From: an uncultured Bacilli bacterium
GTDB taxonomy: Bacteria > Bacillota_I > Bacilli_A > ML615J-28 > CAG-313
Reading direction: 5' to 3'
Length of the DNA: 64,000 nt
Assembly: GCA_934140285.1 (NCBI GenBank)
Contig: CAKPBI010000006.1
Location: 7,042 to 71,041 of the forward strand
Within the stretch, counting starts at the first letter, position 1, and each line of letters opens with the position of its first letter. Below are positions 8,786-31,945 of this stretch, one piece after another. Both the position numbers and the translations under genes were made by a program. The notes under the pieces are model-generated. The model ran no database searches. It was not told the origin of the DNA and saw only the letters and a program-made list of their open reading frames with translations.

Positions 8786-8862
8786 TGGCGTCCCAGACAC
8801 GATTCGAACGTGCGACACACGGCTTAGAAGGCCGTTGCTCTATCCAACTGAGCTACTGGGAC
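8786..8862 (-). tRNA. tRNA-Arg (anticodon TCT)
   Basis: The reverse complement folds as a canonical 77-nt cloverleaf GTCCCAGTAGCTCAGTTGGATAGAGCAACGGCCTTCTAAGCCGTG...TTCGAATCGTGTCTGGGACGCCA. The anticodon loop is CTTCTAA and the CCA is encoded. On the minus strand a hairpin plus T-run terminator follows, at about 8741-8770. Confidence 0.9.
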
Positions 8863-21621: not shown

Positions 21622-21707
21622 GCAGCAGTGGCGGAACGGTAGACGCGCTACTTTGAGGGGGTAGTATACGCATGTATGTGTGAGTTCAAATCTCATCTGC
21701 TGCACCA
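21622..21707 (+). tRNA. tRNA-Leu (anticodon GAG), class II with long variable arm
   Basis: The acceptor stem is GCAGCAG/CTGCTGC with discriminator A and CCA. The anticodon stem-loop is CTACT-TTGAGGG-GGTAG. The T-arm is GTGAG-TTCAAAT-CTCAT. The variable hairpin is TATACGCATGTATGT. Confidence 0.75.
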
Positions 21708-25587: not shown

Positions 25588-27198
25588 ATGAATGAAACTA
25601 TGAACAAAAAGGAATTAAAAGAAAAAGTCGTAGATTATGCTAGTAAAGTATTTTTCTATTGTATCAAAAGATGCAATAACAGAATGGATGCTGAAGACTT
25701 ATCACAAACAATTCTCCTAGAAATAATTCAAAATATTGATAAAGGTGCACAGATCAATAATATGGATTACTACATCTGGGGAGTTTGTAAGAATCAATAC
25801 AACATGTATTTACGAAAGACCATTAAAGAAAGAAATAAAATAGAATACAAAGATGTAATTGATGATGTAGATAATTCAAAAACGGTAATTGAAGAAATGC
25901 TTGAAGATGAAAAAATCAGAAGAATGAATCAAGCCATTAAATTACTAAGTAAAGATTATGCAGAAATACTTTACGCTTATTATGTAGAAGATAAAACCTT
26001 AAAGTTCATAGCTGAAGAATTAAACTTACCTCTTGGAACTGTTAAAAAAAGACTGTTCACGCTTAGAAAAAAGTTAAAGGAGTACTTAGATATGGAAAAG
26101 CTAAATGGCAAAAAAGCCTATGTACCAAAAGATTTTTCGGGTATAATGAGTAATGAAGGAGAAATTGATTTTTATCCTGACTATGAAACCTCCCCCTTAT
26201 TAATTAAAAACTTACTATATCATTCATACAATAACCCTTGTTCAATTGAAGATTACTCAATTGAGCTAGGCATATCTGTTGCGTATGTCGAGGACTATGT
26301 TAAACAACTCGTCAAAAAAGAATTTTTAATAAAACAAGATAATGGTAAATACCTAACAAATATTGCGTTCGCAGATAAAAAAACAAGAATCAAAATTCTT
26401 AAACTTGTAAAAGAGAATATTCATATTATTCAAAAGCCAATCGTTGAATTTTGTAAGAAAAACATTGAATATTATCGTTCTTTATTATTAAATAAAATTA
26501 ATAATGATGAATTATTGATGTGGTCACTAATTTTTATTGTAGAATTAGCAATAACAGAAAAAAAACCTTACAAGGGAACTAAAAAATGTAAAAATGGATC
26601 ATGGGATTATTGTATGGCAGAAAACATAAATACATGTAAAAGTAATGAATATTTCATTTCTTTTAATACAACATCAGTTGATGAATGTAATGTAGCCTTA
26701 ATTGCATGGCCATCCTCAGTATGTAATCCCAACTTTAAAGTAGGATATAGAACATCCTGGAATAATGCTGCAAATGGAAGAGAAGATTATCAATTATTCT
26801 CACATGTTTTGGAAAACGAATTAAAATATGATGAATTAGATACAGATACAAAAACATTAGTTGATAAGTATATAAGTAATAATTACTTAAAAGTTGAAAA
26901 TAATATAATTAAAGTTATTCCTCCTGTAATTTCTAAAAATAATTTATTAAAACTTTATAATTTCATTAAAAATGATACTACTCTTCAAAATGCATTCAAT
27001 GAATATTCTAAAAATGTTTATAAAGAGGTTGAAAAATTATTTCCTTCATACTTACATAATCAATTAGAATTCATTGTATCTTCATTCACCGTTACTCAAC
27101 GTTCATTAATAATTAATTATGCTTACAATGAGGGGCTATTGTCATTAGATGATGAACAAAAACATTTTGTTTATAATATGATGGTTGTAAAAAAATAA
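25588..27198 (+). CDS. ECF-type sigma-70 family protein (regions 2 and 4) with ~370-aa C-terminal extension of unknown function
   Basis: Region-2-like DAEDLSQTILLEI...YYIWGVCKNQY and region-4.2-like LNLPLGTVKKRLFTLRKKL are present. The C-terminal part has a wHTH-like segment and no known domain. The RBS is GAAGAGG. Confidence 0.55.
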   Translation: MNETMNKKELKEKVVDYASKVFFYCIKRCNNRMDAEDLSQTILLEIIQNIDKGAQINNMDYYIWGVCKNQYNMYLRKTIKERNKIEYKDVIDDVDNSKTVIEEMLEDEKIRRMNQAIKLLSKDYAEILYAYYVEDKTLKFIAEELNLPLGTVKKRLFTLRKKLKEYLDMEKLNGKKAYVPKDFSGIMSNEGEIDFYPDYETSPLLIKNLLYHSYNNPCSIEDYSIELGISVAYVEDYVKQLVKKEFLIKQDNGKYLTNIAFADKKTRIKILKLVKENIHIIQKPIVEFCKKNIEYYRSLLLNKINNDELLMWSLIFIVELAITEKKPYKGTKKCKNGSWDYCMAENINTCKSNEYFISFNTTSVDECNVALIAWPSSVCNPNFKVGYRTSWNNAANGREDYQLFSHVLENELKYDELDTDTKTLVDKYISNNYLKVENNIIKVIPPVISKNNLLKLYNFIKNDTTLQNAFNEYSKNVYKEVEKLFPSYLHNQLEFIVSSFTVTQRSLIINYAYNEGLLSLDDEQKHFVYNMMVVKK

Positions 27199-27274
27199 AT
27201 TTAACAGACTATTGTAATTTCTTATCTATTATGATAAAATGTAAGCATAAATAAAAATTAAGGAAAAATAGATA

Positions 27275-27373
27275 ATGTTTAAATTTGTATTTGACTTAGG
27301 AACTATACTTAATATTTTCTTAACAATCTTATATTTAATTATTATAATTAGTTTCCAGTTTGTAAAGATTTAG
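27275..27373 (+). CDS. 32-aa hydrophobic peptide ORF (MFKFVFDLGTILNIFLTILYLIIIISFQFVKI)
   Basis: It has a good RBS (AAGGAAAAATAGATAATG). It is absent from the ORF track because it is below 60 aa. It is speculative. Confidence 0.2.
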   Translation: MFKFVFDLGTILNIFLTILYLIIIISFQFVKI

Positions 27374-27401
27374 TTCTTGGGGTATAAAAAGAAATATATG
27401 T

Positions 27402-27656
27402 ATGACCTCAGAAGAACTATGGCATAAAGTACATGTAAATGCAAGTTTTGCGACCATTCCATTTTTACTAATAAGTACCTTGTTAATCTTTCTAAATAAC
27501 CTTTGGGTTAAGATTGTCGTAGGTTTACTATTATTGTTAATACTTCCAATGATATGGAATATCGTAGTAAAACTAACCCCAAAAAATAAATCACTTGAAT
27601 TAAGAAAACAAGAACAACAAGAATCAGAATCACAAATAAAAAAAGAATCATATTAG
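27402..27656 (+). CDS. small two-TM membrane protein, hypothetical
   Basis: This 84-aa ORF is hydrophobic, has a charged C-terminus and a weak RBS. Confidence 0.3.
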   Translation: MTSEELWHKVHVNASFATIPFLLISTLLIFLNNLWVKIVVGLLLLLILPMIWNIVVKLTPKNKSLELRKQEQQESESQIKKESY

Positions 27657-27996
27657 AATTAATAAAACACCTAATTTCTACCACCAACGCAACTAACTGG
27701 TGCAGTAAATTAAGCATAAAAAGTTGATAAATTATTTATAATGTTATATAATATTAGTGTAAAAGACCTCAAACAACGAAAGGAGTTGATTACTATGAAA
27801 ATCATGTTTTATAATAAATTAGAAGTAATCAAATCCTTTATAGGTACAGATATTTAATATTTTGTAGCAAGCATATAGAAACTATAGGCACTTCTAGTTT
27901 ATTAGAGGTGCTTTTTTGTTGCTACAAGAAAGGAGTGATAACATATGAAACAAATAACTTTAAAACGAAAAGAGGTATCTTACTATTAGCTTTGGC

Positions 27997-28185
27997 ATGA
28001 ATTTAAGAAAATTAAGAGAAAAGAAAAACTTATCTCAAGAAGCTCTTTCAAAAAAACTAAAGATTTCTAGACATTCAATATCCAAGTGGGAACAAGATAT
28101 AAGTTATCCTAGTATTTTGTATCTTATTCCCATCACTAAAATACTTGAATGTACACTAGATGAATTATTGAAAGATCTAAATTAG
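27997..28185 (+). CDS. XRE-family HTH regulator (62 aa)
   Basis: LSQEALSKKLKISRHSISKWEQ is the HTH_XRE signature. It is preceded by a 14-codon ORF (27946-27990) carrying the strong RBS AAAGGAG. Confidence 0.45.
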   Translation: MNLRKLREKKNLSQEALSKKLKISRHSISKWEQDISYPSILYLIPITKILECTLDELLKDLN

Positions 28186-28483
28186 AAAGAAGGAGTTAAG
28201 AATGAATGAATTTAAAGTATATAAGACAATCCATTCTTTAAACAAAGCAAAGAAAATCATGATATTCAATTCATTAAAGTTGTATTAAATAAATGGAATA
28301 TTATTATGAAAAACTATAATTTCTATAAAAGATGTTTATTGGAATTAGGATTTAAACAAAAAGATAATGAACTATTCACACTAGATGTTGAATAAAGATA
28401 ATTAAAAAAAGTTAGTATACAATAAATTAATTGTAAAATTTAAAAGATAATGAGACAAACATATAATATAATTTGACTTTAGG

Positions 28484-28607
28484 TAATACTTATCTTTTAA
28501 TGAATTCAAATAATAATAAATGATTGCTACCGGGCAAATGAATGTAAAGCATTCATATACTTATCGTTAGGTCCTTGAAGATAAGTATGTGAATGCTTAT
28601 TTTTTTG
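28484..28607 (+). promoter_or_regulatory. structured 5' leader with intrinsic terminator directly upstream of pnuC RBS (candidate riboswitch/attenuator)
   Basis: An 18-bp stem (28548-28565 paired with 28580-28598, one G-U) and T9 end 8 nt before the RBS GGAGGA. The upstream segment TAATACTTATC (28484-28494) can pair with the 3' stem half as an antiterminator. Confidence 0.45.
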
Positions 28608-28616
28608 GAGGATTAT

Positions 28617-29320
28617 ATGAAAATACTTAAAGCAATTGTAAAATACTTTTCAATAGGAGAAATTCTATTGTGGAGTTTCTCAACTATTTTAATTATTGCT
28701 TCATTTTGCCTTTTTGGTAAATCAAACTATCTAACTCTTGTAGCATCACTTATTGGTGTAACTTCTTTAATTTTTAATGAAAAAGGAAATCCTATAGGTC
28801 AAATTTTGATGATTATATTTAGTTTAGTTCATGGATACATTTCATTTATCTTCAAATAATATGGTGAAATGTTAACATATGTATGTATGACAATGCCGAT
28901 GGCAGTATTTGCTTTGGTATCTTGGTTAGCCCCCCTTTTAAAGGAGATAAAGCTGAAGTAGAAGTTAACAAACTAAAAAAGAATGAACCAATAATCATGT
29001 GGTTTTTAACAATTATTATAACAGTAATCTTCTATGTTATTTTAAGAGCCTTTAACACAAAAAACATTATTCCTAGTACAATCTCAGTAACCACAAGTTT
29101 TATTGCGGTATACCTTACTTTTAGAAGAAGTTCTTTTTATGCAATAGGTTATGCAACAAATGATATAGTACTAATTATACTATGGACTTTACCAACCATT
29201 GAAAACATATTTTACCTTTTTTGTAATTGTTTGTTTTATAACTTTTCTCGCAAACGATGTATATGGATTTATAAATTGGCAAAAGATGACTCAAAGGCAA
29301 TCAGATATAACAAAAGCATA
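28617..29320 (+). pseudogene. pnuC: nicotinamide riboside transporter PnuC, disrupted by at least 3 frameshifts
   Basis: The pieces lie in three frames: MKILKAIVKYFSIGEILLW...FIFK; YGEMLTYVCMTMPMAVFALVSWLAPL; and ...IMWFLTIIITVIFYVIL...ATNDIVLIILW. The final frame has ANDVYGFINWQKM, the PnuC C-terminal signature. One shift is at a C6 homopolymer (28930-28935). Confidence 0.5.
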
Positions 29321-29423
29321 AATAAAGAATGCCGTTATCGGCAATTTAACTTTTAAAATCAACAATTAATTACTTGATAATTTGCCGATAATGTGATATA
29401 ATAATCCTATATGGAGGTGTTTT

Positions 29424-30320
29424 ATGAATTATCTAAGCGTATTAGAAATTTCTAAACTTTGGAATTTGTCAGAACGCAGTGTTAGAAATTATTGTGCTAA
29501 TGGTAGAATCCCGGGAGCAATTCTTCTAGGTAAGACATGGATGATCCCAAGTAATGCTAAAAAACCAGAAAGAAAGAATAGAGAAAATTTTACTAAAAAT
29601 ACTTTACTTAATATTTTGAAACTTGAAAAAGCAACTAAGCTAAAAGGTGGAATATATCATAAAATTCAAATTGAACTTACATACAATTCTAATCATATGG
29701 AAGGAAGTAAACTTACTAGTGATCAAACTAGATATATTTATGAAACTAATACTATTGGTCAATCTAATGAAATAATAAATGTAGATGATATAATTGAAAC
29801 AGTTAACCATTTTAGATGTATTGATTTAATAATAGATAAAGCCAAACTTAATATTACAGAAAATCTCATAAAACAGCTTCATCTTATTTTAAAAAGTGAA
29901 ACGAGTGATAGTAGAAATAAATGGTTTGTTGTTGGTGATTATAAAAAATTACCAAGTGAAGTTGGCGGTCTTCCTACAACAAAACCAGAAAACGTCAAGG
30001 ATGAAATTAAAACTTTAATTGATTGGTATAACAATATTGAAACTAAAACATTAAATGACATAATTGAATTTTATTATCGTTTTGAATCTATTCATCCGTT
30101 CCAAGATGGTAATGGTAGAGTAGGAAGACTTTTAATGTTTAAAGAATGTTTAAAATACAATATTGTACCTTTTATAATAGATGATAATTTAAAAATGTTT
30201 TATTATAGGGGATTAAAAGAATGGCCAGTGGAAAAAGGGTATTTAATAGATATATGTAAGTCAGCTCAAGATCACTTCAAAAAATACTTAGATTACTTTA
30301 GAATTAAATATGATAAATAG
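29424..30320 (+). CDS. Fic-family AMPylator with N-terminal HTH (class II), paralog of 24296-25183
   Basis: HPFQDGNGRVGR is the Fic motif and SNHMEG the inhibitory motif. The N-terminal HTH is LEISKLWNLSERSVRNYCANGRI. A promoter TTGATA-17-TATAAT and the RBS TGGAGGTG are present. Confidence 0.8.
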   Translation: MNYLSVLEISKLWNLSERSVRNYCANGRIPGAILLGKTWMIPSNAKKPERKNRENFTKNTLLNILKLEKATKLKGGIYHKIQIELTYNSNHMEGSKLTSDQTRYIYETNTIGQSNEIINVDDIIETVNHFRCIDLIIDKAKLNITENLIKQLHLILKSETSDSRNKWFVVGDYKKLPSEVGGLPTTKPENVKDEIKTLIDWYNNIETKTLNDIIEFYYRFESIHPFQDGNGRVGRLLMFKECLKYNIVPFIIDDNLKMFYYRGLKEWPVEKGYLIDICKSAQDHFKKYLDYFRIKYDK

Positions 30321-30388
30321 ATAATTATTATAAAATTACTTCACTTTTTTAAAACTTTGTTACTATATTAGTGAAAGGAGGTATCATT

Positions 30389-31945
30389 ATGCAAAATAAA
30401 GAGCAATTAAAAGAATTAATAGCAAGTGAATATTTAAATAGATTCTTAACATTTTATATAAGCAGAACCTCTTCAATACAAGATGCGGAAGACTTATCAC
30501 AAAAGGCGGCCTGTGAGTGTTTAGATGCTTTAAGTCGTGTTGAAGAAATAAAGAATGTAAATGCTTATTTTTGGAGTATTGCTCATAATGTATATAAAAA
30601 CTACATTAATAGAAAAAATAATTATATTTTAGATGATGATTATTGTAAAATACAAATTATTGACACTTGCGATGATGAAAATAATGAAGAACAAACATTA
30701 CATAATGATATTAGAAAATCACTAAGTATCCTTTCAGGGTTATATCGTAAGATAATAGTACTTTACTATTATCATGAATTAAAAATCAAAGATATAGCCG
30801 AAAAACTTAATATTAGCCAAGACATGGTTAAGTATTATTTGTCAAATGGAAAGAAAAAGTTAAAGGAGATTTATGATATGAATAAGACAATCGGTGAAGT
30901 AAGCTTTAATCCTAAAGATTTTTCAATATACTATTCAGGAATTGATTTTACAAGCATAAACGTGTGGGAACTATTTAAAAGAAAATTACCATGTCAAATT
31001 GCCTTAATATGTTATGCTAAACCTAAATCAGTAACTGAAATTTCTAATGAAGTAGGTTGTAGTAGTTGTTACATTGAAGATGAAATTGCAATACTATTAA
31101 AAGCCGGAGTATTAATTGAAAAAGTAAAGAATAAATATCAAACAAATTTTTGCATTATCAGTAAAGAAGAACTTGATGTTATTGATACAATGTATAAAAA
31201 AATGTATGACGAATATGTAAAAGAAGTTGAAAAAGTTTTTAATGAACATTTTGAACAATTTAAACAAACAAATATTTATAATTATAAAGCTGAAATAGAT
31301 CAATACAAATGGATTTTTGTAGATAGAATCGCAGATATAGATAAAAGAAAGTTAGTTACTAAAGATTCAGATTATCCCAAAATTTTATCGTGTGGTGCAA
31401 GAGGATTAGTTTTTGGATTAGAAGCCAAAACTCCAAAAGGAGTATGTGGTCAAACCCCAACTTCATTAAATGATTATACCCTATGGGCAAGAGATTTATG
31501 GTTATCTAAAAACCATAGTTCCAATCAAGTAATCTTAAGAGATAAAGTAATAGCACAAACCGTCATTGATGTGTATAATGGTATAGTTGATAATAGTAAA
31601 GAAGAATTATATGCCTATTTAATTAAAAACAATATTTTAATTAAAGATAATGGAGTATTAAAAACGACTATTGCCTACTTAAATGAGGATTTTCAAAAAC
31701 TAATGGAAAACATCAATAATGATTTATACGTTAAATTAGAATCATCAACAAACAAAATTAAAGAATATTTAACAAAAATAATAACCAAATCAATTCCAAG
31801 TAATCTAAAAGAATATGTTAATGGATATGTTGTTATTTTAATGGAATTCTTTGCTGGTAACAAAATAATTCAAACTTTAATTGAAAATAATTTTTTAAAT
31901 GATAAAATAAAAAACATCCAAATTAGTTATTTTATCAATAAATAA
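30389..31945 (+). CDS. ECF-type sigma-70 family protein with ~350-aa C-terminal extension, paralog of 25588-27198
   Basis: Region 2 reads IQDAEDLSQKAACE...AYFWSIAHNVY. Region 4 reads YRKIIVLYYYHELKIKDIAEKLNISQDMVKYYLSNGKKKLKE. The RBS AAGGAGG precedes the ATG at 30389. The domain order matches the first sigma-like gene. Confidence 0.55.
   Translation: MQNKEQLKELIASEYLNRFLTFYISRTSSIQDAEDLSQKAACECLDALSRVEEIKNVNAYFWSIAHNVYKNYINRKNNYILDDDYCKIQIIDTCDDENNEEQTLHNDIRKSLSILSGLYRKIIVLYYYHELKIKDIAEKLNISQDMVKYYLSNGKKKLKEIYDMNKTIGEVSFNPKDFSIYYSGIDFTSINVWELFKRKLPCQIALICYAKPKSVTEISNEVGCSSCYIEDEIAILLKAGVLIEKVKNKYQTNFCIISKEELDVIDTMYKKMYDEYVKEVEKVFNEHFEQFKQTNIYNYKAEIDQYKWIFVDRIADIDKRKLVTKDSDYPKILSCGARGLVFGLEAKTPKGVCGQTPTSLNDYTLWARDLWLSKNHSSNQVILRDKVIAQTVIDVYNGIVDNSKEELYAYLIKNNILIKDNGVLKTTIAYLNEDFQKLMENINNDLYVKLESSTNKIKEYLTKIITKSIPSNLKEYVNGYVVILMEFFAGNKIIQTLIENNFLNDKIKNIQISYFINK

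Follow-up and report, generated by a model that had tools for sequence, protein, structure and literature searches.

A very probable guanidine-IV riboswitch in the leader of a PnuC-family transporter pseudogene

Positions 28520-28606 of the window, by which we mean the whole 64-kb stretch of DNA that was analysed, very probably form a guanidine-IV riboswitch (GGAM-1 or mepA motif). The 5' leader that contains it belongs to a transporter gene of the PnuC family, which has turned into a pseudogene in this lineage. The aptamer and the terminator are intact, and the riboswitch is most plausibly a relic of a decaying gene island, orphaned only recently. By homology to other members of the class, the RNA would respond to guanidinium. 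An earlier note on this DNA had proposed a riboswitch-type transcription attenuator, and this is borne out by conservation before intact pnuC genes and by covariation. The note had also suggested an NAD-related class (NAD+-II, the pnuC motif), and here it was mistaken: Rfam gives no match, and the RNA falls with guanidine-IV, a class documented with PnuC-like cargo. With a known riboswitch class, a known gene context and an ordinary pseudogene, the finding is an ordinary one; its sole part that might be new is a hairpin formed by the linker between the two halves of the aptamer.

Anatomy and class of the leader

The leader is made of the following parts.

28473..28501, + strand: promoter, position-conserved in relatives; -35 box TTGACT (28473-28478), 17-nt spacer, -10 box TTTAAT (28496-28501); placed from the leaders of loci L001 and L004
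28520..28603, + strand: extent of the match to our guanidine-IV covariance model, R1
28524..28537, + strand: P1 hairpin of the guanidine-IV aptamer; 5 bp, UUGCU/GGCAA (28524-28528 with 28533-28537), loop ACCG (28529-28532)
28529..28572, + strand: kissing loop or pseudoknot, A28529-C28530-C28531 with G28570-G28571-U28572, placed by covariation
28538..28556, + strand: linker hairpin, AUGAAUGU-AAA-GCAUUCAU, 8 bp, -6.8 kcal/mol
28549..28606, + strand: intrinsic terminator with the second aptamer half inside it; lower stem 28549-28556/28589-28596, upper stem 28557-28565/28580-28588, U-tract 28597-28606
28607..28619, + strand: ribosome-binding site GGAGG (28607-28611) and start codon ATG (28617-28619) of pnuC; same layout in L001 and L004

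The leader folds at -36.4 kcal/mol (z = -3.5), more stably than 200 of 200 dinucleotide shuffles. The earlier note had described a terminator with an 18-bp stem and nine T's, set 8 nt before the ribosome-binding site. The terminator stands, with 17 uninterrupted pairs (28549-28565 with 28580-28596), or 18 counting A28548-U28597; its tail TTATTTTTTT (28597-28606) has T at nine of ten positions and directly abuts GGAGG. A simple terminator scan misses it because the scan allows loops of up to 8 nt, whereas the apical loop here, GUUAGGUCCUUGAA (28566-28579), has 14; this loop is conserved, and the apex as a whole (28565-28580, CGUUAGGUCCUUGAAG) fits the conserved loop C-R-N-Y-AGGYC ... GAAG of guanidine-IV. 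The ribosome-binding site is unpaired in the conserved structure, and the expression platform is the intrinsic terminator that ends 5' of it. The string singled out earlier as a candidate aptamer is indeed present and holds the 5-bp P1 hairpin with its ACCG loop.

The proposed antiterminator fared differently. A segment complementary to the 3' half of the stem does exist upstream (ATACTTATC, 28487-28495, a repeat of 28557-28565), but we reject its antiterminator role: it lies inside the 17-nt spacer of the conserved promoter, is therefore untranscribed, and is not conserved in relatives. The promoter itself is absent from a consensus scan because its -10 hexamer, TTTAAT in the window versus TATAAT in relatives, has lost the critical A at position 2. 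Promoters stand 20-25 nt 5' of P1 in many PnuC loci of a one-genome-per-species scan. The window also has a TTTAAA-17-TATAAT of its own at 28439-28467, 30 nt 5' of the conserved promoter, which by its sequence could act as a replacement.

Membership in guanidine-IV rests on our own model R1 and on published sequences, as Rfam 15 seems to have no family for the class. In GGAM-1, that is guanidine-IV, two hairpins are joined by a pseudoknot and the second is a Rho-independent terminator (Lenkeit et al. 2020, PMC7736828). The sequences behind R1 are 2 validated ones and 11 associated with SMR, MATE or NimA genes; PnuC-associated sequences were left out. It matches the window at 28520-28603 with 61.8 bits (E = 2.2e-17), the sole match in 64 kb, and it matches 72 of 82 PnuC loci at 31-76 bits, a range that includes the score of the window. 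The window RNA also aligns with two guanidine-binding RNAs, 147 Lla from L. lactis (...ACUCC-ACCG-GGAGU...UUUCAGUAGGUCUGAGAAGAAAU...) and 92 Rti from R. timonensis (...CUGCC-GCCG-GGUAG...AUCGUUAGGCCAUAGAAGAU...; PMC7736828 supplement), both 5' of sugE/emrE genes, and every invariant nucleotide is kept. The P1 loop is ACCG, as guanidine-IV requires (ACCG or GCCG, closed by C-G pairs), and the invariant loop columns of the window are common to validated, SMR-associated and MATE-associated members.

Covariance scans with the Rfam riboswitch models, which the earlier note had suggested, gave neither NAD+-II nor any other riboswitch. At gathering score, Rfam 15 found no riboswitch in the whole window, its sole matches being two tRNA genes (8789-8862, - strand; 21622-21704, + strand). 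At E <= 10, only chance miRNA-precursor matches of the long hairpin appeared in 28380-28680. Four relatives (L001, L002, L004, L005), the consensus-like L039 and an SMR-associated member likewise gave no riboswitch, only chance miRNA or sRNA hairpins. Because the scans gave only such chance matches, guanidine-IV seems to be absent from the Rfam library, and Rfam-only scans will keep flagging leaders of this kind as 'new'. A degenerate purine riboswitch, suspected from CUACCGGGCA, was rejected, as there is no RF00167 match and the architecture is another one. A literature search found no Clostridia pnuC riboswitch and no 'NAD+-III' class, and no PnuC entry occurred in 200 files searched among the supplements of the human-microbiome structured-RNA catalogue.

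A near-identical leader lies on contigs that code intact pnuC homologues. Comparison with the pnuC loci of relatives, which had also been suggested, shows the leader conserved before intact homologues in about 70 of 82 loci (72 by R1). In the one-genome-per-species sample, 80 loci with 44-75% protein identity and mainly from Christensenellales, Oscillospiraceae, Ruminococcus and other Clostridia MAGs, the three-part RNA lies directly 5' of pnuC in most cases. Across an alignment of 45 leaders, the pairs of P1, the upper stem, the lower stem and the 3-bp loop-loop pairing are formed in 98.7% of cells, with compensatory changes in 15 of 22 pairs; none of 500 shuffles matches the observed pairing, and slid controls are 30-42% paired. 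P1 alone is 99% paired, with covariation. The loop-loop pairing ACC:GGU is paired in 100% of the leaders (AU 41, GC 2, GU 2), and it covaries: it is replaced by GCC:GGC in L082 and L044, as in the validated 92 Rti, and by AUC:GAU in L050, a locus that reaches only 19.9 bits. The apical-loop sequence CGUUAGGUC...GAAG is invariant across downstream-gene families.

These families were surveyed by scanning metagenomes for the pattern GCCACCGGGYA-N20-50-CGTTAGGTCTTWGAAG, which matched at least 120 stretches. Among the 80 loci listed, about 60 have a PnuC homologue downstream, and the others listed include MatE, Multi_Drug_Res (SMR, SugE-like), EamA and Pyridox_ox_2 (NimA-like) genes, all Pfam-confirmed. 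This gene set is the signature of guanidine riboswitches. In fact, the published cargo of guanidine-IV is SugE (31%), PnuC-like (25.2%) and MATE (22.6%) proteins, along with NimA; its authors raised the PnuC and MATE classes as possibly new guanidine exporters, and PnuC genes are almost never linked with guanidine-I, -II or -III riboswitches (PMC7736828). When the literature was searched for experiments on guanidine export by PnuC, only this 2020 speculation came up. The PnuC clade studied here is nearly always under a guanidine-IV riboswitch (72 of 82 loci), where annotators who see 'pnuC' would expect NAD-related control. This association agrees with the published suggestion that PnuC-like proteins handle guanidine or a related compound and not nicotinamide riboside. 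Among the scanned loci, L009 holds two guanidine-IV copies (1705-1786 and 2404-2486), one before a NimA-like gene and one before PnuC. In L128 (SMR) and L124 (EamA) the RNA has no U-tract and abuts the ribosome-binding site, so these riboswitches may, from their layout, be translational versions.

Could the leader belong instead to a look-alike subclass of guanidine-IV, such as the variant Gd4v, sensing another gut-relevant ligand that the PnuC-like protein would import or export? We consider this very unlikely. [quoted passage not shown] Moreover, two PnuC loci, L050 (about 2015-2107) and L069 (2348-2448), have an extra hairpin in the terminator apex that resembles feature D2 of Gd4v. However, the loop nucleotides of the window are those of validated and SMR-associated members, and all G's invariant in these members are present (guanidine-IV and Gd4v are told apart by the D1 nucleotide, whose position is given in a figure of the Gd4v paper). 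The authors of Gd4v, for their part, left PnuC-associated RNAs in guanidine-IV.

The chances are slimmer still for an NAD+-related riboswitch (NAD+-II, the pnuC motif, or another NAD or nicotinamide riboside class) that would turn off import of nicotinamide riboside once enough of the cofactor is present. The protein gives this reading its appeal: it matches PF04973 and the PnuC equivalog TIGR01528, and it is distantly related to the solved nicotinamide riboside transporter 4QTN (E = 3.5e-16). The RNA speaks against it. Neither the window nor the consensus-like relative has an Rfam match even at E <= 10, which refutes NAD+-II membership; members of that class are translational switches of Streptococcus with a Shine-Dalgarno pseudoknot. 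This RNA also lies before genes unconnected with NAD (SMR, MATE and NimA), and all its invariant positions are identical to those of guanidine-binding RNAs. Lastly, there is next to no probability that the element merely terminates the transcription unit before it, senses nothing and has complementary sequence close by through chance: a hairpin with a U-tract before a gene is common, and the upstream GNAT and HTH genes lie on the same strand, but the loop does not vary between distant taxa or with the kind of gene downstream, covariation is seen both in P1 and in the loop-loop pairing, many loci have a dedicated promoter between the upstream gene and P1, and the covariance model matches at E = 2e-17.

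A linker hairpin in the switching mechanism

The guanidine-IV members that have been studied bind guanidinium with a KD of about 60-200 uM, and their two conserved loops kiss. The ligand can bind only as long as the terminator stem is unfinished, within a narrow co-transcriptional interval at about nucleotides 87-88; ligand then causes read-through, making these RNAs ON switches (PMC7736828; bioRxiv 10.1101/2020.10.21.349134; PMC11611296). By analogy, without ligand the hairpin 28549-28596 and its U-tract would stop transcription of the window RNA just 5' of the ribosome-binding site. With guanidinium, the P1 loop ACC (28529-28531) would kiss the apical loop GGU (28570-28572), a contact that would be needed while the polymerase is still on the U-tract and that would keep the lower 7-8 bp of the terminator open (28549-28556/28589-28596). 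An open lower stem would allow read-through, and the switch would then be ON with ligand.

In the window and in most PnuC-associated members, we propose that the freed 5' strand of the lower stem could be captured by the linker hairpin (28538-28556), so that the read-through state would consist of three adjacent hairpins. The conserved competitor of the terminator is in fact AUGAAUGU (28538-28545), which pairs with the 5' stem half 28549-28556; since the 5' strand of the lower stem doubles as the 3' arm of the linker hairpin, the hairpin is a candidate classical antiterminator. Predicted energies for the window RNA are -27.0 kcal/mol for P1 plus the full terminator, -18.7 kcal/mol for P1 plus linker hairpin and upper stem, and -11.9 kcal/mol for P1 plus upper stem with an open linker. 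By the same predictions, a nascent transcript ending at 28588 folds unaided into the three-hairpin state.

This pairing of the linker with the lower stem's 5' strand is seen in 37 of the 45 leaders of the alignment, with 96.8% of cells paired and compensatory change in 4 of 5 pairs, against 23-37% paired in slid controls. In a metagenome sample picked by the exact RNA pattern, 153 distinct linkers fold at -4.6 kcal/mol versus -1.25 for shuffles (mean z -2.7). A linker hairpin of at least 5 bp is found in 86% of 127 PnuC-associated members (mean z -2.85), in 4 of 10 MATE-associated and in 0 of 3 SMR-associated ones, the latter two samples being tiny. The validated L. lactis RNA has one too (AAUCGU/ACGAUU). 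The sections of the published guanidine-IV texts available to us do not mention an antiterminator hairpin, and describe the linker as single-stranded or flexible.

We therefore raise, as a tentative and rather doubtful idea, that PnuC-associated guanidine-IV riboswitches are a subtype in which a conserved linker hairpin captures the 5' strand of the lower terminator stem. If so, the ligand-bound state would be a compact fold of three hairpins (P1, linker hairpin and upper stem) locked by the kissing loop, and the device a classical terminator/antiterminator switch, not one that works purely by steric hindrance or linker length. The observation is a modest refinement of the debate on how guanidine-IV works.

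Decay of the transporter gene and its island

The gene that the riboswitch precedes, and the remnant of another gene upstream, are laid out as follows.

28202..28395, + strand: GNAT acetyltransferase gene, reduced to a remnant by the loss of about 795 bp between two short imperfect repeats, CAATCCATT and CAATTCAGTT
28617..29321, + strand: PnuC-family transporter pseudogene with three lesions, 85% identical to the intact 234-aa homologue P0001
28857-28859, + strand: lesion 1, in-frame TAA (TAC>TAA) at codon 81, which is Tyr in all homologues
28930-28935, + strand: lesion 2, frameshift, net -1 at a C6 tract
29217-29222, + strand: lesion 3, frameshift, +1 T in a T6 tract

Once repaired, the product (235 aa) covers positions 2-175 of the 175 in the PF04973 profile (E = 3.7e-30), and it scores 63.8 bits with the PnuC equivalog TIGR01528, whose cut-off is 42.45. 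P0001 comes from human-gut metagenomes. Over columns that are otherwise invariant among 11 homologues, changes private to the repaired protein number 10, most of them non-conservative; the homologues themselves have 0-7 such changes, and the nearest relative has 0. The earlier note had counted at least three frame breaks. There are indeed three disruptions, including the break it had placed at the C6 tract (net -1), but only two shift the frame, the other one being the in-frame TAA.

The note had left three readings of these breaks side by side: real decay, a phase-variable slippage site, or sequencing error. The first holds. Among 10 independent gut-metagenome contigs, 8 are 100% identical to the window over 28440-29360 with all three lesions, and the remaining 2 (L212 and L215) have the leader, the TAA and the C6 lesion in common with it and lack the extra T; the third lesion is thus polymorphic and the first two are shared. 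The same lesions on independent contigs mean real decay. Sequencing error is rejected, with the TAA and C6 lesion in 10 of 10 contigs and all three lesions in 8 of 10; besides, the intact long ORFs (34 kb) contain 93 homopolymer runs of 6 bases or more, none of which causes a frameshift. Phase variation is rejected as well, since the length of the C6 tract is constant in 10 of 10 contigs and the two other lesions keep the gene off anyway. Two products of the broken gene, one of 80 aa that stops at the TAA and one of 157 aa from the frameshift, are each recorded in exact form on at least 22 contigs. The contigs stem from many different samples and projects, among them Hadza, Nepal, MERR22, ERZ2728xxxx and a Logan run, and have the same neighbours (sigma-like, HTH, Fic, sigma-like). 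The pnuC of this lineage is a true pseudogene, and its cargo cannot be made.

No G/C run in the 64 kb is longer than the C6 tract (within 28926-28936). Set against L001 (CTAAAAAATCCA), the tract came about by a cluster of A-to-C/G changes with a 1-nt loss (TT-AGCCCCCCT), not by simple slippage. In L212 and L215, which belong to the same lineage as the window and come from Hadza and Nepal samples, 24-25 substitutions are clustered within 29156-29327, the 3' 170 bp, and this diverged stretch looks like a recombined segment.

Decay extends to the GNAT gene upstream. Window 25629-28239 corresponds to L001 1-2609 and window 28223-29404 to L001 3405-4582, which maps the deletion, and the sister lineage (L001-L003) has both an intact 334-aa GNAT and an intact pnuC. 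Identity to this lineage is 94.7% in the upstream flank and 89% from the deletion junction through pnuC. The riboswitch itself differs from L001 at 4 of 87 nt, similar to the 5.3% of the upstream flank, so that there is no sign of special retention. GNATs are a gene class linked to guanidine-IV and Gd4v riboswitches; the remnant here has no riboswitch before it. Genes for two paralogous sigma-70-region-4 proteins, each of about 530 aa, stand on either side of the island (25588-27198 and 30371-31945). On its 3' side, a Fic-domain gene (29424-30320) has a strong promoter of its own, TTGATA-17-TATAAT with TG (29374-29402), and is preceded by a small hairpin (29330-29343). One gut lineage has lost a small detoxification module, of which the orphan riboswitch, dead transporter and deleted GNAT are the traces; the same lesions are seen in samples from several cohorts.

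Comparison with known systems

Several known riboswitches share single traits with the window RNA. In the HMP-PP riboswitch (thiS motif) the aptamer is likewise embedded in an intrinsic terminator hairpin, but ligand, sequence and genes are others and the window has no Rfam match to it. NAD+-II (RF03013), whose covariance model has conserved internal-bulge nucleotides between two stems, also lies upstream of a PnuC-family gene; it has no similarity in sequence or structure and no covariance-model match here, and it is a translational OFF switch of Streptococcus in which the Shine-Dalgarno sequence is sequestered in a pseudoknot, whereas the window RNA uses an intrinsic terminator. Guanidine-II (mini-ykkC) binds the same ligand, and also through ligand-dependent kissing of two C-G-closed hairpin loops. 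However, its loops are ACGR, as against ACCG and GGUC here, its control is mostly translational, and the discoverers of guanidine-IV found no binding-pocket pattern homologous between the two classes.

Gd4v (Lenkeit et al. 2022, PMC9788692) is closer. It has two hairpins and a pseudoknot with a terminator-embedded aptamer, and is enriched in gut metagenomes; it precedes transaminase, GNAT and MATE genes and never sugE. The window differs in having no extra apex hairpin (D2) but a plain 14-nt loop, and in keeping the guanidine-IV loop.

The closest likeness is to guanidine-IV (Lenkeit et al. 2020 NAR; Salvail et al. 2020), with its P1 and ACCG loop, its terminator loop CGUUAGGUC...GAAG, its covarying 3-bp loop-loop pseudoknot, its U-tract directly before the ribosome-binding site and its cargo set of SugE, PnuC, MATE and NimA. 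The window departs from it in its pseudogene cargo and its degraded -10 box, and, together with most PnuC-associated members, in having a stable linker hairpin where published models have a single-stranded linker.
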